In this document: in pieces, positions 44,827-63,693 of the stretch
Numbering within the stretch: the stretch's first letter is position 1
Layout: each line of letters opens with the position of its first letter
Source of the DNA: Escherichia coli
GTDB taxonomy: Bacteria; Pseudomonadota; Gammaproteobacteria; Enterobacterales; Enterobacteriaceae
Reading direction: 5' to 3' (one strand)
DNA length: 64,000 nt
Assembly: GCF_024298765.1 (NCBI RefSeq)
Contig: NZ_CP101210.1
The notes under the pieces: generated by a model
Databases searched by the model: none
What the model was told of the DNA's origin: nothing
Seen by the model: only the letters and a program-made list of their open reading frames with translations
Translations under genes and position numbers: made by a program

Positions 44827-44893
44827 CAGAAACACAGAAAAGAAGCGATTTGCCGCAATCTTAAGCAGTTGAATCGCTTTTACTGAAATTAGG

Positions 44894-44923
44894 TTGACGA
44901 GATGTGCAGATTACGGTTTAATG
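44894..44923 (+). promoter_or_regulatory. Candidate promoter of tRNA-Phe
   Basis: TTGACG followed about 17 bp later by TTTAAT, about 10 bp upstream of tRNA 5' end. Confidence 0.45.
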
Positions 44924-44932
44924 CGCCCCGTT

Positions 44933-45008
44933 GCCCGGATAGCTCAGTCGGTAGAGCAGGGGATTGAAAATCCCCGTGTCCTTGGTTCGATTCCGAGTCC
45001 GGGCACCA
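44933..45008 (+). tRNA. pheU: tRNA-Phe (anticodon GAA)
   Basis: 76 nt GCCCGGATAGCTCAGTCGGTAGAGCAGGGGATTGAAAATCCCCGTGTCCTTGGTTCGATTCCGAGTCCGGGCACCA; pheU assigned from flanking yjdC. Confidence 0.95.
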
Positions 45009-45020
45009 AATTCATATAAA

Positions 45021-45049
45021 CGGACCTCCACGGAGGTCCGTTTTTCGTT
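45021..45049 (+). terminator. Rho-independent terminator after tRNA-Phe
   Basis: CGGACCTCC-ACGG-AGGTCCG hairpin followed by TTTTTCGTTTT. Confidence 0.75.
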
Positions 45050-45205
45050 TTAGGACGCCACGATTTAAGCGTCCTGCCGCCAAATCAATTCTACCGAACT
45101 CAACCAGACTCCCCCCACATCAACCCCATTGTGTGGGTATAATTGCGGGTATACCCCAGTTCGACAGAATTTGTACCCTCTTTAACGCATTCAGAAGGCT
45201 GAACT

Positions 45206-54291: not shown

Positions 54292-56271
54292 TCAGGTGCC
54301 GATTATGCCGCCGTCGGCTTTTACGATAACGACAGTTGAGGAGCGCGGACGACCAGCCTTATCGCCGTCAGGCCAGCTTGATACTGCCGTCGGATGCTGC
54401 GGATCGCTAAGCCCTTCGCTTGGCTCGCCAGGGTGCTGGATGTTAATAAACAGCGTCCGGTTATCCGGAGTGAACGCGATGCCGGTGATTTCGCAGCCGC
54501 GCGGGCCGGTCAGGAAGCGGCGGAACTCATTGGTACCGGGGATCGTCGCCACCATCTGGTTGTTGCCCATGCCTTTGTAATCTTTACTATTGATGGTTGA
54601 TGACGACACGTCGGTCTGGATCCATAGCACGCCGCGGTGATCGAAGCTCAGGCCATCGGCGCTGCCGAATTCCGCCCCCTTCATGCTGCCTTTGGTTTCC
54701 GGTTTGTCCGTATCGGTGCGACCGCCCATCACAAGAATATCCCAGGCAAACTGCAGCGCGGTCGGGTCACCGTTATGCTCCAACCAGTGAATGATGTGGC
54801 CGTAAACGTTTTTGGCGCGCGGGTTGGCCGCATCCACTGGCGCTTTTCCTTCCTTACCGCGATCGCTGTTGTTGGTGAGCGTGCAGTAAACGCTGCCGGC
54901 GTGATATGGATCGACCGCAATCCACTCCGGGCGGTCCATTTTAGTGGCCCCCACGGCGTCTGCCGCCAGACGGGTTTTAATCAACAGGTCGCCCTGGTTT
55001 TCAAACCCTTTACTGGCGTCGAGCCCATTTTGTCCGAACACCAGCGGTAGCCACTCGCCTTTGCCGTCGTCGTTAAATTTCGCCACGTACAGAGTGCCTT
55101 TTTCCAGCAGGTGCATGTTGGCTTTGCGATCCTGCGGGTTGAATTTTCCTTCCGAGACAAATTTATATATGTATTCGAATTTCTGGTCATCGCCCATATA
55201 GACCACAACGCGGTTATCCGGGGCAATTGTCACCGCTGCGCCTTCGTGTTTGATGCGACCAAGCGCGGTGTGCTTGCGCGGCACTGAATGCGGATCGTAT
55301 GGATCGATTTCCACCACCCAGCCGAAGCGGTTCGGCTCGTTCGGCGTGGCGTCGACGCTGAACCTTTTATCCACTTCGTTCCAGCGGTAAGAGTCGTCGC
55401 TCCCGCTGATACCGTAACGTTTTTCCAGCGGGTTCATCTCTGCTTTTTTTACGAAAATATCGGACCAGTTCTCTTCACACGTCAGATAGGTGCCCCACGG
55501 CGTAAATCCGTTGGCACAGTTCTGCATGGTGCCGAGAATGATTTCGCCTTTCGGATCGTCAACTGTTTGCATCAGTGGGTTATGCAGCGCCGGACCGGTG
55601 ATTTTCATCGGCGTGTTAACGGTGATGCGGCGTGCGAAAGATGACGGGCGCACCACTTCCCAGCCCAGGGGCACTTTTTTTACTTCAATGACCGACACGC
55701 CCATCGCGTTCTGGCCTTTAAGAGCTTTATCGGCGCTCCAGTTGGCATCGCCATCTTTAAACAGTAGACCGTTATCGATGTATTCATGGTTTATGGCAAG
55801 CAGGCCGTGATCGGAGCTGTTCCCGCCCTGCGGCAGGCTAAACCACGCCATGCCGTCGTGGTGCATCCCGGCCTGCGCCGCCTGTTCTTCCGTGGTGTTG
55901 CTACCGTCGGTTTTAAAAACCGGCAGATTTCCGGCAATCCCGGTGGCGTCGCCCCATTTGTAGAAGGGCTTCGCGATGTATCCTTCCGGCACGATAACGG
56001 TATCTTCCGTGGAAACCGGCAGGCTGGTGAAACCGAGCGTCGTCGCTTTGCCGAGGTTACCGCTTGCTTTGGAGACCACTTTCGCCAGCGCGTTTTCCTG
56101 TTTCAGCAGAAATGGGAACGCTGCCGCGGCACCGGCGACCGTGCCTGCCTGTAACAGACGGCGGCGTGACAAATAGACTTCCGCCACCTGCGAAAACGCG
56201 CGGTTATCGCTCGGGTTACTGATTTCTTCACTATGCTCACGTTTGAATAAAGTTTTTAACGGTCTGCCCAT
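54292..56271 (-). CDS. PhoX-family (DUF839) alkaline phosphatase-like protein with twin-arginine signal
   Basis: ORF track 659 aa; SRRRLLQAG Tat motif; conserved blocks LAINHEY, GRIKHEGA, MDRPEWIAV, NIQHPGE which I associate with PhoX-type phosphatases. Confidence 0.6.
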   Translation of the reverse strand: MGRPLKTLFKREHSEEISNPSDNRAFSQVAEVYLSRRRLLQAGTVAGAAAAFPFLLKQENALAKVVSKASGNLGKATTLGFTSLPVSTEDTVIVPEGYIAKPFYKWGDATGIAGNLPVFKTDGSNTTEEQAAQAGMHHDGMAWFSLPQGGNSSDHGLLAINHEYIDNGLLFKDGDANWSADKALKGQNAMGVSVIEVKKVPLGWEVVRPSSFARRITVNTPMKITGPALHNPLMQTVDDPKGEIILGTMQNCANGFTPWGTYLTCEENWSDIFVKKAEMNPLEKRYGISGSDDSYRWNEVDKRFSVDATPNEPNRFGWVVEIDPYDPHSVPRKHTALGRIKHEGAAVTIAPDNRVVVYMGDDQKFEYIYKFVSEGKFNPQDRKANMHLLEKGTLYVAKFNDDGKGEWLPLVFGQNGLDASKGFENQGDLLIKTRLAADAVGATKMDRPEWIAVDPYHAGSVYCTLTNNSDRGKEGKAPVDAANPRAKNVYGHIIHWLEHNGDPTALQFAWDILVMGGRTDTDKPETKGSMKGAEFGSADGLSFDHRGVLWIQTDVSSSTINSKDYKGMGNNQMVATIPGTNEFRRFLTGPRGCEITGIAFTPDNRTLFINIQHPGEPSEGLSDPQHPTAVSSWPDGDKAGRPRSSTVVIVKADGGIIGT

Positions 56272-56876
56272 TGCGGTTTCCTTTCAAAAAATCGATTTCA
56301 AGGGGAATCATTTTTATGCACGTGAGTCTACGGAAAGATTGTTACGGAAATATAACAATTGTCATAAAAAACCGGCGATAAAATCATCTATGGTCGGGAC
56401 GCGGTTTCAGGTATGATGTGAGGCTAGAATTCTGAACGCTCTCTTTTGTTGAGCATATATGGACGTCCCAGATGAGGCAAGTACTGGTTCGATGCGGTTT
56501 GCGACCATATATCCGGCGTCGTTAGTAGGTTCAATGACCTGCGCCATGATGTTATCCGGGCCCTATTTCCTAATCACTACACCGGTATTTGATTACCCAG
56601 GTCAACTTCAGACTGTTACAGGGGCGGTAGCCGTTATCTCATCAGTGAATGTAAACTCAGTTAAAAATATTTTCTATAACTTACTGTTTTTCTTTAATTC
56701 ATCACAACGGCCTTCTGCATATTAAAATCAATACTATCGCTCAAAACACGCCAGATGATTCTTGTCAGCTTATTCGCCAGCGCACCAGTGGTTTTCAGGA
56801 ACCCTCGACGGGCTTCCATCCTTTGCAGACAAATACTCAGACTGTCAGTGAGCTTTTTCACACAGCGCATTACAGA

Positions 56877-57288
56877 CTGAAATGGCACACTGAATTTGGT
56901 CACCTGAACAGAGGTGATATGCTCACCTCAGAACAAGACTGGTGCCCTAATGAAAAAAAGAAATTTTAGCGCAGAGTTTAAACGCTAATCCGCCCAACTG
57001 GTTGTTGACCAGAACTATACGGTGGCAGATGCCGCCAAAGCTATGGATATCGGCCTTTCCACAATGACAAGATGGGTCAAACAACTGCGTGATGAGCGTC
57101 AGGGCAAAACACTAAAAGCCTCTCCGATGACACCAGAACAAATCGAAATACGTGAGCTGAGGAAAAAGCTACAACGCATTGAAATGGAGAATGAAATATT
57201 AAAAAGGCTACTGCACTCTTGATGTCAGCCTCCCTGAACAGTTCTCTATAATAGGGAAACTCAGGACACGTTATCCTTTGGTCACTCT
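56877..57288 (+). mobile_element. IS911-like (IS3 family) remnant: left end plus orfA carrying a nonsense codon; orfB absent
   Basis: Left end TGAAATGGCACACTGAATTTGG..; orfA reads MKKRNFSAEFKR* then ..[39 protein letters not shown]; element ends abruptly near 57288. Confidence 0.7.
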
Positions 57289-58160
57289 CTGTGTAGTGGA
57301 TCGGTAATTCAGGACACCTCATTTTCACTGTTAATGTTAAAAAGTGAAAATGAGGTGATGCATGATCAAAACTCGTCGGACTAAACGTACCTTTTCCCCG
57401 GAGTTCAAGCTTGAAGCTATCGAACAGGTGGTTAAATACCAGCGTGATGTCAGAGAAGTCGCGCTGGCACTCGAGCTCAACCCTGACCATTTGCGTAAAT
57501 AGATACGGTTGTATAAGCAGGAACTTCAGGGTATTGAGCCCGCTGGTAATGCTATTACTCCTGAACAACGCTAAATTAAGCAGCTTAAAGCGCAGATAAA
57601 GCGCCCTGAGATGGAAAAAGAAATACTAAAGCAGGCTGCCGTGCTGATGAGCGAAATCCCCGGGGAAACTGTCGCGCTAATCACACAGCTGAAAGCAAAG
57701 TGGCCAGTGCGGGTTCTTTGTCATTTATTCGGTATTCACCGTAGCATTTATTACGCGCAGGTGAAGCGTCCTGTTAATGTGCAAAGAATTGAATTACGAA
57801 GTCGGGTGAGGGCTGTCCATGCTCTCAGTCGTGGCGCAGTCGGTAGCCGGGCAATCAGTCAGATGTTGCGCCATAGTGGCGTTGATGCAGGCCGGTGGCT
57901 GGCACGACGACTGATGCGGGAATGCGGGCTGACAAGTCGACAGCCAGTTAAACATCACTACCGGGTAAACGAAGACAAAAGTCCGCCATTGCCAAATTTA
58001 CTGAACCGGCAATTTCACCCCGCCGCACCAAACCGCGTCTGGTGCGGCAACATCAGTTTTATTCGCCTGCAGGACAAATGGTGTTATCTCGCACTCGTTG
58101 TTGATTTATATTCACGGCGGATTATCGGTTCAGCCCTCTCATTAACCGCTGATGCTGAGT
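57289..58160 (+). mobile_element. Degenerate IS3-family element: orfA with two in-frame stops, orfB truncated by IS66 insertion
   Basis: orfA from ATG 57362 MIKTRRTKRTFSPEFKLEAIEQV.. with TAG and TAA stops; orfB fragment (ORF 57611..58165) ..RVWCGNISFIRLQDKWCYLALVVDLYSRRIIG.. ends where IS66 end begins. Confidence 0.6.
57316..57357 (+). promoter_or_regulatory. Perfect 15-bp stem hairpin overlapping the ribosome-binding site of the IS3-family orfA
   Basis: CACCTCATTTTCACT-(12 nt)-AGTGAAAATGAGGTG; the 3' arm contains GAGGTG 5 nt upstream of ATG at 57362. Confidence 0.5.
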
Positions 58161-58198
58161 TGTAAGCGTACAGCGAGGGCCGTATTGACGGGGATGTG

Positions 58199-59736
58199 TT
58201 ATTCAGCTGGCAGTGCTATGCGCCACGGAAGCAGTTCGCTGACCCGGTTGACCGGCCAGTCTGCTATGACGCCAAGCACATGGCGAAGGTAACTTTCTGG
58301 ATCCACGTCATTCAGTTTGCACGTCCCTATCAGGCTGTACAGTAGCGCTCCCCGCTCACCACCATGGCCAGAGCCGAAGAACAGGAAGTTTTTACGACCC
58401 AGACTTACCGCCCGCAGGGCATTTTCAGCGATGTTGTTGTCGATTTCCACCCAGCCATCGTTCGCATAGTACGTCAGTGCCGGCCACTGGTTAAGTGCGT
58501 ACGCGAACGCCTTCGCCAACTCTGAGTGTCGCGACAGGGTCTTCATCTTTTCACGCAACCAGCTTTCCAGGGATTTCAACAGCGGTTTCGTTTTTCGCTG
58601 ACGTTCAGCAAGCCGCTGCTCTGCCGGCATTCCCCTTATATCCGCCTCTATGGCGTACAACTGACCGATCTGCTCCAGGGCTTCTTCCGTCAGTGCTGAC
58701 GGGATGCGGACGTGCACATCGTGGATCTTTCGGCGGGCATGAGCCCAGCAGGCAGCTTCCGTTATCCCACCATTGCGATACAGCTCGTTGAACCCGGCGT
58801 ACGCATCCGCTTGCAGCACACCGCTGAAGCAAGCAAGATGAGTCTGCGGATGGATGCCTTTTCTGTCCGGGCTGTAAGCGAACCACACTGCAGGTGCCAA
58901 CGCTGACCCGGCATTGCGGTCATCACGAACATACGCCCACAACCGCCCGGTCTTCGTCTTCTTATTACCCGGCATCAGTACCTGGACCGGGGTATCATCG
59001 GCATGGAGTTTGCCGTCAGTCATGACATAGCCATGAAGCGCCTCTTCCAGCGGAGACAGCAGCCGGCAGCATGCATCCACCCAGCCCGACAGCAGTGAAC
59101 GGCTCAGCTCCACACCTTGCCGGCCGTATATTTCTGACTGGCGATACAGCGGGGTGTGCTCTGCATACTTCGAGGTCAGCACGCGGGCCAGCAGCCCCGG
59201 TCCGGCGATACCCCGCTCGATGGGCCGCGAAGGTGCAGGTGCCTGCACGATGGCATCGCACTGAGTACAGGCATGTTTTTCCCGTACCGTCCGGATAACC
59301 CGGAAGGCGCTACGCATCAACTCCAGCTGTTCGGCGGTATCCTCGCCCAGATAGCTCAGTGAACCGCCGCAGTTCGGGCAGCACGGCGCCGCAGGCAACA
59401 GTCGCTTTTCGTCACGGGGTAGTGATTCAGGGAACGGCTTACGGATGCGGGTCTGACGCAACGGACGCTGTACTGCGGGTCATACACCCTACCAGTCAGC
59501 GTATCGCTCTCTTTCTGAAGCCGGTTCAGATCGGCTTCCATTTGTGCGATACGGCGGGAGACTTTTTCGGAACGACTGCCGAAGTTCATCCGGCGGAGTT
59601 TATCCAGCTGCGCCTGCAGATGGTCTATTTCGCGCTCCCGGTTGCTCAGCTTTTCCTGCAGGGCGTGGATCAGCGCTTCCTGTTCGGCCAGGCGCTGTTT
59701 CAGCAGGAAGATGTCGTCAGAAGAGATGTCGTTCAT
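58199..59736 (-). pseudogene. IS66-family TnpC transposase, split by a frameshift
   Basis: N-terminal 126-aa ORF (59356..59736) and 420-aa ORF (58199..59461) overlap in different frames; together about 530 aa. Confidence 0.7.
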
Positions 59737-59785
59737 AAGCCCGTATTTTACCGGGCTTATTCTGTGACAACCAGGATAAAGAGAT

Positions 59786-60133
59786 TTACAGCATGGTCAG
59801 GGAGGTCAGCAGCCGCTTAGGCTGTCGCCAGTCGATACCTTCCAGCAGCATCGCCAGCTGCGCCTGTGTAAGGAACACTTTGCCATCACGGGCTGACGGC
59901 CAGGCGAAGCGCCCACGCTCCAGCCGTTTGGTCAGGAGGCACAGTCCGTCACCGGTGGACCACAGCAGTTTAACCTGACTGCCGCTGCGGCCCCGGAAAA
60001 TGAAAACATGGCCGGACATGGGATCGTCTTTCAGCGCCGTCTGTACTTTCGCAGCCAGGCCGTTGAAGCCATTTCTCATATCGGTGATACCGGCAACCAG
60101 CCAAATTTTGGTCCCGGAAGGTAACGGGATCAT
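59786..60133 (-). CDS. IS66-family TnpB (orfB)
   Basis: ORF track 115 aa MIPLPSGTKIWLVAGITDMRNGFNGLAAKVQ.., characteristic IS66 orfB. Confidence 0.8.
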   Translation of the reverse strand: MIPLPSGTKIWLVAGITDMRNGFNGLAAKVQTALKDDPMSGHVFIFRGRSGSQVKLLWSTGDGLCLLTKRLERGRFAWPSARDGKVFLTQAQLAMLLEGIDWRQPKRLLTSLTML

Positions 60134-60531
60134 CGCTTCAGTTCCTGTATCAGCAGAGTCAGGAGCTTTTCGCTGACATTGCCATTGAAGCGGAGCGTCC
60201 CGTGCCGGAACGTTACCTCACAGCTGATACTGAGGGTTTCCGGGTCCTCTGCGAGCGATTCTGGCTGTTCGGCAGCTGCATCGAGAGTCACAGGAAGTAG
60301 CTGGGGGCTCTCTGAAGAAGGTAATATCAGCTTTCCCTCGCGCCATTGTTGTCGCCATTTGAACAACAGATTGGCGTTAATGCCATTTTCAAGAGCAAGT
60401 TTTGAGATGTATATCCCGGGTTCACAGGAGGCAGCAACGAGCTGCTGTTTAAATTCGGGAGGATAATTAGGGCAGCCTTTTCGCCTGCCGGGAGTCACAT
60501 TTTTCTGCATATCTGACACTTTGGTTCCCAC
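60130..60531 (-). CDS. IS66-family TnpA (orfA)
   Basis: ORF track 133 aa, HTH-type N-terminus; first gene of IS66 operon. Confidence 0.7.
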   Translation of the reverse strand: MGTKVSDMQKNVTPGRRKGCPNYPPEFKQQLVAASCEPGIYISKLALENGINANLLFKWRQQWREGKLILPSSESPQLLPVTLDAAAEQPESLAEDPETLSISCEVTFRHGTLRFNGNVSEKLLTLLIQELKR

Positions 60532-60587
60532 TACTTATTTGAAGTGCGCCCCAATAGTTAGACACCAGATCTGTAACTGAGGAGCGT

Positions 60588-60943
60588 ATGAGCAAATTTT
60601 CATTAGAATTCAAAAGGGAAGTATCAGAAAAATACCTGGAAGGTGAGCTGAGTTTGAAGTCTGTTGGAAAAATGTACAATATTGACCCCAGCACGGTAAG
60701 GAAATGGGCTTATGTTTACCGTAAGCACGGATTAAAAACACTGACTGGGCAAAAAAGACGTTATGACGATAACTTCAGATTGAATGTGGTCAGAGATGTT
60801 ATTGATAATTCTCTTTCTATAAGGGAAGCTGCAGTGAAGTATGGGATCCCTGCTTTTAACACCATATCCAAATGGATTAAAAAATACAGTGAGGTTGATT
60901 TTTCGATGAAGGGACAAAAGGAAGATTTGAGGCCGAAAACTCC
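60588..60943 (+). pseudogene. IS3-family (IS150-like) orfA-type double-HTH transposase gene, interrupted by IS1
   Basis: ORF track 125 aa MSKFSLEFKREVSEKYLEGELSLKSVGKMYNIDPSTVRKW..; last codons derive from the IS1 left end at 60944. Confidence 0.55.
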
Positions 60944-60998
60944 GGTGATGCTGCCAACTTACTGATTTAGTGTATGATGGTGTTTTTGAGGTGCTCCA

Positions 60999-61274
60999 GT
61001 GGCTTCTGTTTCTATCAGCTGTCCCTCCTGTTCAGCTACTGACGGGGTGGTGCGTAACGGCAAAAGCACCGCCGGACATCAGCGCTATCTCTGCTCTCAC
61101 TGCCGTAAAACATGGCAACTGCAGTTCACTTACACCGCTTCTCAACCCGGTACGCACCAGAAAATCATTGATATGGCCATGAATGGCGTTGGATGCCGGG
61201 CAACAGCCCGCATTATGGGCGTTGGCCTCAACACGATTTTACGTCACTTAAAAAACTCAGGCCGCAGTCGGTAA
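60999..61274 (+). CDS. insA: IS1 InsA
   Basis: ORF track 91 aa [40 protein letters not shown].. Confidence 0.9.
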
Positions 61275-61696
61275 CCTCGCGCATACAGCCGGGCAGTGAT
61301 GTGATTGTCTGCGCTGAAATGGACGAACAGTGGGGCTACGTCGGTGCTAAATCACGTCAGCGATGGCTGTTTTACGCGTATGACAGGATACGGAGGACGG
61401 TTGTGGCGCACGTCTTCGGTGAACGCACTCTGGCCACACTGGAGCGTCTTCTGAGCCTGCTGTCGGCCTTTGAGGTCGTGGTATAGATGACGGATGGCTG
61501 GCCGCTGTATGAATCACGCCTGAAGGGAAAGCTGCACGTTATCAGCAAGCGTTACACTCAGCGCATTGAGCGACATAATCTGAATCTGAGACAACATCTG
61601 GCAAGGCTGGGACGGAAGTTACTGTCGTTCTCAAAATCGGTGGAGTTGCATGACAAGGTCATCGGGCATTATCTGAACATAAAACACTATCAGTAA
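61193..61696 (+). pseudogene. insB: IS1 InsB interrupted by in-frame TAG
   Basis: Track splits InsB into 61193..61486 (..LSAFEVVV*) and 61487..61696 ([12 protein letters not shown]..); sequence GTGGTATAGATGACGG where canonical IS1 has a Trp codon as I recall. Confidence 0.7.
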
Positions 61697-61837
61697 GTTG
61701 GAGTCATTACCTCCTCCCGAACTCAAAGCTATCATACAGATAATTACTGGTTAACCCTATATAGGGCATTTTAAAGTGTTGTGATCTTACCCAGCAATAG
61801 TGGACACGCGGCTAAGTGAGTAAACTCTCAGTCAGAG

Positions 61838-62143
61838 GTGACTCACAAGACAAAACAGTTTCAACCAGTAAAAAAACGTAAACAGCATTCGCCTGAATTT
61901 CTCAGTGAAGCCCTGAAACTTGCTGAACGCATCGGTGTTGCTGCCGCAGCCCGTGAACTCAGCCTGTATGAATCACAGCTCTATGCGTGGCGCAGCAAAC
62001 TGCAGCAACAAATGAGTTCGTCAGAGCGTGAAAGTGAACTGGCCGCTGAAAATGCCCGCCTGAAGCGGCAACTGGCGGAGCAGGCAGAGGAACTGGCTAT
62101 CCTCCAAAAGGCCGCGACATACTTTGCGAATCGTCTGAAATGA
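61838..62143 (+). CDS. IS3 OrfA (HTH protein); canonical ATG appears replaced, GTG start only
   Basis: ORF track 101 aa ..[57 protein letters not shown]. Confidence 0.65.
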
Positions 62144-63006
62144 AGTATGTCTTTATTGAAAAACATCAGGCTGAGTTCAGCATCAAAGCAATGTGCCGCG
62201 TGCTCCGGGTGGCCCGCAGCGGCTGGTATACGTGGTGTCAGCGGCGGACAAGGATAAGCACGCGTCAGCAGTTCCGCCAACACTGCGACAGCGTTGTCCT
62301 CGCGGCTTTTACCCGGTCAAAACAGCGTTACGGTGCCCCACGCCTGACGGATGAACTGCGTGCTCAGGGTTACCCCTTTAACGTAAAAACCGTGGCGGCA
62401 AGCCTGCGCCGTCAGGGACTGAGGGCAAAGGCCTCCCGGAAGTTCAGCCCGGTCAGCTACCGCGCACACGGCCTGCCTGTGTCAGAAAATCTGTTGGAGC
62501 AGGATTTTTACGCCAGTGGCCCGAACCAGAAGTGGGCAGGAGACATCACGTACTTACGTACAGATGAAGGCTGGCTGTATCTGGCAGTGGTCATTGACCT
62601 GTGGTCACGTGCCGTTATTGGCTGGTCAATGTCGCCACGCATGACGGCGCAACTGGCCTGCGATGCCCTGCAGATGGCGCTGTGGCGGCGTAAGAGGCCC
62701 CGGAACGTTATCGTTCACACGGACCGTGGAGGCCAGTACTGTTCAGCAGATTATCAGGCGCAACTGAAGCGGCATAATCTGCGTGGAAGTATGAGCGCAA
62801 AAGGTTGCTGCTACGATAATGCCTGCGTGGAAAGCTTCTTTCATTCGCTGAAAGTGGAATGTATCCATGGAGAACACTTTATCAGCCGGGAAATAATGCG
62901 GGCAACGGTGTTTAATTATATCGAATGTGATTACAATCGGTGGCGGCGGCACAGTTGGTGTGGCGGCCTCAGTCCGGAACAATTTGAAAACCAGAACCTC
63001 GCTTAG
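62140..63006 (+). CDS. IS3 OrfB (DDE transposase catalytic part)
   Basis: ORF track 288 aa with rve-domain motifs (..[39 protein letters not shown]..). Confidence 0.85.
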
Positions 63007-63019
63007 GCCTGTGTCCATA

Positions 63020-63685
63020 TTACGTGGGTAGGATCACTAAGCCAGGAATTAAGTCATTTAAAGATATTTCAAATTCACTGGCAATCGTATCTAATCCTTC
63101 CTTATCAATAGATTCAAGCCATAAATTATAATCAATAGGAAGAAGCAACGGATGAGTAAAGTTCAATCTATTTACTAAAGATGATTTAGTATACTCATCA
63201 TTACTTAGCTCTCCAATAAATTCATTATTTATAGAAACAGCATAGTTCTTTATATATGCTGCTCTGTGCAATTGTGACCATGCGATTTTAAACTCTACAT
63301 AAACCTTTTCAGTTTCATCTGCAATGTCTTTCATTTTTATAAAATGAATATCGAAAATATCACCAAGTTCTTCTAAATATGTTTTATATTCTACACCTAT
63401 TGTTTGTTCAGGATCGAAACCGATACCAATAGTAATTACATTATTCAGATCCCCATTATGGACTAGAGATCTAAATCCATCTATGCGCCTGTTCCCCATA
63501 GCTTCTAAATATATAGGATCACACTGCTCACGGTCTAATATTTGTTGAAGATAAAATAATGCAATTAAAATAGTAGTCTTGCCCGCGCTGTTTGGCCCCA
63601 ATAGTAATGTTACAGGTGCAAAATCAATTTCCTGCCGCTCTCTAACAGATCTGAAATTTTCAAGTACAAGTTTAGTTAATTTCAT
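63020..63685 (-). CDS. ABC-type (AAA_15/AAA_21-like) ATPase, N-terminal 221 aa; reading frame terminated inside IS3 right end (likely truncated)
   Basis: MKLTKLVLENFRSVRERQEIDFAPVTLLLGPNSAGKTT Walker A; stop codon lies within the IS3 terminal sequence; AT-rich. Confidence 0.6.
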   Translation of the reverse strand: MKLTKLVLENFRSVRERQEIDFAPVTLLLGPNSAGKTTILIALFYLQQILDREQCDPIYLEAMGNRRIDGFRSLVHNGDLNNVITIGIGFDPEQTIGVEYKTYLEELGDIFDIHFIKMKDIADETEKVYVEFKIAWSQLHRAAYIKNYAVSINNEFIGELSNDEYTKSSLVNRLNFTHPLLLPIDYNLWLESIDKEGLDTIASEFEISLNDLIPGLVILPT

Positions 63686-63693
63686 AATGAACC

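Follow-up and report, generated by a model that had tools for sequence, protein, structure and literature searches.

A truncated ISEc8 element with the tnpA-tnpB-tnpC layout

The window is a 64,000-nt stretch of the Escherichia coli contig NZ_CP101210.1 (RefSeq assembly GCF_024298765.1), and it contains an insertion sequence of the IS66 family on the minus strand. The element, its right end and its two accessory genes lie as follows.

58162..60541, minus strand: truncated ISEc8 (IS66 family), matching IS nt 62-2442 of 2442 bp by blastn
58162..58187, minus strand: right terminal inverted repeat of ISEc8, reading …CCCTCGCTGTACGCTTAC on the coding strand; extent approximate
60130..60510, minus strand: tnpA, 126 aa, ATG at 60510; Pfam HTH_Tnp_1, E 1.6e-11
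59786..60133, minus strand: tnpB, 115 aa, IS66 accessory protein; Pfam TnpB_IS66, E 1.2e-38; PGAP WP_000612591.1

The identity of the element was established by comparison with complete genomes. When aligned by blastn to an intact 2442-bp ISEc8 (L005), the window gave one match with 99.3% identity and 1 gap, and over the 2381 aligned positions (IS nt 62-2442) the nucleotide identity to the intact copies L004 and L005 was 99.3-99.7%. A megablast search of complete E. coli genomes with 58150-60650 gave hits to 6645 records, which belong to 4214 of 5426 genomes; in 3633 records the best place was at least 99% identical. Matching features are annotated by PGAP as 'IS66-like element ISEc8 family transposase'. 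Furthermore, Pfam searches recovered the three-gene layout of the IS66 family, tnpA (HTH)-tnpB-tnpC, and in the sequence the tnpB ATG overlaps the tnpA stop as ATGA at 60130-60133. The mechanically called tnpA ORF reaches a GTG at 60531 (133 aa); for the matching 381-nt CDS, PGAP gives either transposase or IS66-like accessory protein TnpA.

Like ISEc8, the window copy has the three genes, an ATGA overlap between tnpA and tnpB, and the right terminal repeat, but it differs from ISEc8 by a deleted G in tnpC, by the missing left 61 bp and by having no target-site duplication. The right IS end is common to the window and the intact copies, and divergence starts directly past the end of ISEc8. At the other end, blastn and a left-end alignment showed that the window lacks IS nt 1-61, and with them the left inverted repeat (GTAAGCGTACAGCC…); of the two inverted repeats of ISEc8 (GTAAGCGTACAGC…), only the right one, from 58162, is present. 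Instead, at 60541/60542 the element abuts unrelated sequence that starts, on the plus strand, TGAAGTGCGCCCC… (also given as TGAAGTGCGCCCCAATAGTTAGACACC), and the sequence from 60542 may be the end of an IS3-family element. Intact ISEc8 measures 2442 bp and is flanked by a perfect 8-bp target duplication, GTCTTAGG for L004 and GTTCAACG for L005; tnpC is 1539 nt long in the copies from plasmids p1201b and pERL06-2503. No such duplication was found at the window copy, whose left end is absent. The truncated left junction is common to a few strains (XB2, CH4804 and GPEC60-33-648), while other strains, such as FORC_082, retain the full ISEc8 left end at this locus. The full-length copies L002 and L003 at the same chromosomal site have unrelated flanks. 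The window copy is a truncated derivative and not a complete ISEc8. A second ISEc8 copy, which might complement it in trans, was sought in the window by blastn and was not found.

A single missing G splits tnpC within a conserved domain

The third gene of the element, tnpC, is distributed over two reading frames.

58199..59736, minus strand: tnpC pseudogene, 1538 nt against 1539 nt in intact copies; single gap relative to L004, L005 and L006
59356..59736, minus strand: tnpC 5' ORF, 126 aa, ATG start, TGA stop at 59356-59358
58199..59461, minus strand: tnpC 420-aa ORF, TTG start assigned mechanically in the ORF list
58199..59479, minus strand: tnpC 3' reading frame, -1 relative to the start; encodes the rest of the leucine zipper (LZ), the zinc finger, the DDE domain and the C-terminal element
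59476..59477, minus strand: 1-nt deletion site, tnpC nt 261, about IS nt 1127, from alignment to intact copies

An initial annotation of this DNA had described tnpC as split between a 126-aa and a 420-aa part in different frames with an overlap of about 100 nt. The ORF list bears this description out, with an overlap of 106 nt at 59356-59461. The 126-aa ORF matches Pfam LZ_Tnp_IS66 over profile positions 1-47 of 71 only, and the 420-aa ORF contains zf-IS66, DDE_Tnp_IS66 (E 7e-107) and DDE_Tnp_IS66_C. Because the Pfam domains divide between them, the two ORFs are the halves of one IS66-type tnpC and not a chance pair. The 3' frame opens at 59479, right behind a TGA at 59482-59480, and both frames are open together over 124 nt (59356-59479).

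The alignment to intact tnpC sequences that the initial annotation had proposed placed the indel at 59476/59477 and reduced it to a single missing base. Relative to three intact 1539-nt copies, one G of a GG pair is absent from the window tnpC (intact, GACCCGGCAG; window, GACCCGCAG), so that intact GAC CCG GCA GTA CAG (D P A V Q) becomes GAC CCG CAG TAC AGC. The interval given earlier for the split, 59356-59461, is correct as the overlap of the ORFs but does not hold the lesion itself, which sits 15 nt upstream on the coding strand. Apart from this one gap, the window tnpC differs from the close intact copies L004 and L005 by 4-11 substitutions. When the G was put back, the gene encoded a 512-aa protein with 2 residues different from WP_096965644.1, the intact RefSeq ISEc8 transposase of L004; as it stands, the gene is 1538 nt long, one G short, and the continuous 512-aa frame of ISEc8 is interrupted. 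Translation from the tnpC ATG yields 86 native residues and 40 out-of-frame residues before the stop. In the repaired protein LZ_Tnp_IS66 covers residues 39-110, and since the break comes after residue 86, it cuts a conserved domain and not a linker.

The deletion allele is rare, occurs in several contexts and decays further

The allele is already known from public annotation, as RefSeq/PGAP flags the matching locus as a frameshifted pseudogene. Specifically, PGAP labels the 1538-nt tnpC CDS at the same locus as 'frameshifted' in XB2, FORC_082 and TUM1886, and the ISEc8 pseudogenes AB3W07_RS04210 (XB2) and FORC82_RS04135 (FORC_082) have the same allele at the same locus as the window. Between the ISEc8 regions of XB2 and the window a single base differs, at 60327 within tnpA; the two tnpC sequences are the same. 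The right junction, at which the ISEc8 end meets a truncated IS3-family orfB, is common to 41 complete E. coli genomes. Most of these have the deletion, but at that site tnpC is intact (1539 nt) in PK8275, B771 and EcE.ESBL.COL. The copy of EcE.ESBL.COL has locus-specific SNPs in common with the FORC_082 copy, from which only the G and two SNPs no further than about 110 nt from it set it apart, a hint of gene conversion among ISEc8 copies; its intact tnpC could be either the ancestral state or the product of repair by gene conversion.

To count alleles, we used a 66-nt segment centred on the deletion site and searched E. coli records. The segment is present in 4474 records (9640 places), and the deletion allele is matched exactly in 42 of them, about 30 chromosomes and about 12 plasmids; in 4431 records the best match is gapped or mismatched. 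A two-frame organisation is therefore not conserved among relatives of the window copy, with one-frame copies occurring even at the same chromosomal site. The deletion allele was found in at least three contexts: the chromosomal island, an IS1414/RelE locus on plasmids of roughly 130-175 kb (L008, L011 and L012 are plasmid copies), and, in strain 26561, another chromosomal site. A full-length copy of the allele lies, for example, on plasmid pTB-nb2. Target-site duplications were sought at the copies in these other contexts and none was present among the copies examined, and autonomous transposition of the deletion allele was judged improbable on this ground.

Several deletion-bearing copies have acquired additional lesions. 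An extra 33-nt deletion is found in APEC 102026 (L010), a second 1-nt deletion in TUM11352 (L017) and an extra 153-nt deletion in strain 26561 (L009), as would be expected of a genuine pseudogene in decay. In addition, another ISEc8 copy, on plasmid pLD67-1-165kb (L007), has lost an A at tnpC nt 1382, an independent 1-nt deletion that also shifts the frame, indicating that frameshifted ISEc8 tnpC pseudogenes arise repeatedly.

Sequencing error or functional split

We considered whether the true sequence is GG and tnpC is intact. Single-base indels are the commonest type of assembly error, and strains with the intact allele at the same locus do exist. However, the deletion site is a GG dinucleotide and no long homopolymer, and the exact allele recurs in complete-genome records from varied laboratories, hosts and countries, on chromosomes as well as plasmids. 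Because 42 independent complete-genome records match it exactly, the deletion is unlikely to be an error confined to this one assembly, and reads with a single continuous frame, which the initial annotation had named as its refuting condition, are not to be expected either. The independent extra lesions that accompany the allele also argue against an artefact. Taken together, these observations make an artefact highly improbable.

A second possibility is that the split is functional, with the 126-aa partial leucine zipper acting in trans as an inhibitor or regulator of intact ISEc8, or with the DDE part being made from an internal start. For IS1 and IS911, N-terminal fragments are established regulators of transposition. 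Since tnpA, tnpB and the start of tnpC are all intact in the sequence, the fragment could be expressed, and an ATG at 59317 behind a GGAG at short spacing is a candidate internal start. N-terminal regulators like those of IS1 and IS911 are not known for IS66. However, the fragment itself holds just the first 47 of the 71 LZ profile positions followed by 40 nonsense residues. A product from the ATG at 59317 would be without the first half of the zinc finger. The rarity and further decay of the allele also speak against a functional split, and no evidence of selection was found; we consider such a function very unlikely. We give equally little credence to the related idea that the deletion allele might be a persisting non-autonomous ISEc8 lineage, whose 126-aa fragment would dampen intact copies or whose full-length copies would be mobilised in trans.

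No signals for programmed frameshifting in tnpC

The initial annotation had also raised a programmed frameshift, as the less likely reading. A programmed -1 ribosomal frameshift within 59356-59479 would fuse the 126-aa ORF to the DDE frame, and the frequency of slipping would set the transposase level. The -1 relationship of the frames and the 124 nt open in both would allow such an event, and the presence of the deletion allele in more than one genomic context could be read in its favour. Programmed -1 frameshifting relies on the motif A AAA AAC in IS1 and on A AAA AAG with a downstream structure in the IS3 family. The motif scan covered tnpC nt 248-381 and found no X XXY YYZ heptamer in any frame of 59356-59479 and no A AAG-type motif in the zero frame, which settles the check for slippery heptamers in the ORF overlap that had been suggested at the outset. 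The sole A-run, ACG AAA AGC, is no -1 slippery context and would not allow cognate re-pairing after a -1 shift. Folding of the RNA from 59340-59485 was no more stable than that of shuffled controls (MFE -42.8 kcal/mol; shuffle mean -47.7; z = +1.26). Furthermore, the shift falls inside LZ_Tnp_IS66 and not between domains, and a slip anywhere other than at the deletion site would replace conserved residues. About 99% of the records with the segment differ from the deletion allele, intact copies have one continuous frame, and further lesions pile up in the deletion-bearing copies.

The comparison with known frameshifting elements points the same way. The window tnpC resembles IS1/IS3-type frameshifters in having overlapping 0 and -1 ORFs with the catalytic domain in the second, but it is without the slippery motif, the structure and the conserved split, and its break lies within a domain. 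By contrast, the IS1 copy 1.8 kb away in the same window has the classical slippery motif TTAAAAAACTC at 61248-61258, and another neighbouring position in the window matches an IS3-family element of XB2 that PGAP annotates with 'programmed frameshift'. One paper assigns programmed frameshifting to IS1, IS3 and IS5/IS427 only, and our literature search found no report of it for IS66 tnpC, in agreement with the initial annotation, according to which none is known. The literature found on ISEc8 and IS679 consisted of genome surveys, with none on tnpC expression; the search did not cover the primary IS679/IS66 characterisation paper. By the heptamer scan, RNA folding, domain mapping and allele counts combined, programmed frameshifting in tnpC was rejected, and the probability we leave to it is practically negligible.

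A decayed, probably non-autonomous ISEc8 copy

The split tnpC is, very probably, the result of an ordinary inactivating 1-nt deletion in a truncated ISEc8 copy. An inactivating mutation was the preferred explanation from the beginning, and it is now supported by the alignment, the heptamer scan, the folding, the position of the domain break and the rarity of the allele. In the mechanism that we propose, the tnpA-tnpB-tnpC element of the window would be a decayed, non-autonomous copy of ISEc8. Loss of a G from the GG pair at tnpC nt 261 shifts the frame after codon 86, and the native part of the 126-aa product ends within the N-terminal leucine-zipper domain. The zinc-finger and DDE catalytic domains are left in the -1 frame with nothing to join them to the N-terminal part, and IS nt 1-61 have been lost at the junction with another IS fragment. 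With tnpC split and the left end lost, the element would have neither its own transposase nor two ends on which a transposase could act in trans. We infer that the split tnpC gives no functional transposase, although low-level frameshift suppression or re-initiation may occur. With the left inverted repeat gone, the window copy is predicted to be unable to move even if transposase is supplied in trans.

The presence of the allele in at least three contexts might be unexpected if it is entirely inert. We infer that it presumably reached the other contexts when IS copies underwent homologous recombination or gene conversion, or when larger segments that carried it moved, and not by its own transposition. 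Recombination between IS copies and the absence of target duplications account adequately for the several contexts.

These findings describe routine insertion-sequence decay in a genomic island with several IS copies and fragments, and by themselves they matter very little. Their practical use is in annotation, where a single tnpC pseudogene should replace the two ORFs and the element should be marked as truncated and immobile. A minor use of the allele and its junctions could be as lineage markers among the E. coli strains, largely poultry-associated, in which they occur. If the 126-aa fragment did act as a regulator of ISEc8, it would resemble the N-terminal regulators known from IS1 and IS911.

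Neighbouring IS copies and the surrounding island

Other IS remnants lie on both sides of the element. On the right, a truncated IS3-family orfB at 57611-58165 (HTH_21 and a partial rve domain) adjoins the right end of ISEc8, and small transposase fragments are found further out (57000-58161 region). On the left there is one further ORF.

60588..60965: HTH ORF beyond the truncated left end, 125 aa, HTH_28/HTH_Tnp_1

The 3' end of this ORF is cut by a 768-bp IS1 copy at 60944-61711. In the insB frame of this IS1, a TAG stop is present at 61484-61486 where XB2 has TGG, and the stop lies within a stretch (61300-61564) that differs from XB2 by 32 substitutions. The sequence suggests that the IS1 copy is a mosaic variant that is also inactivated.

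From 44885 to 64000 the window is collinear with an island of XB2 that adjoins tRNA-Phe, at 99.65% identity, and in XB2 this island includes an integrase along with several copies and fragments of IS elements. To the left of 44885, no alignment longer than 800 nt was obtained to the 25.9-kb XB2 stretch, in which yqgA and speC come after tRNA-Phe. The window may therefore hold the same type of island at a different tRNA-Phe gene, or a rearrangement of it. A tRNA-Phe gene at 44933-45008 marks the island boundary in the window.
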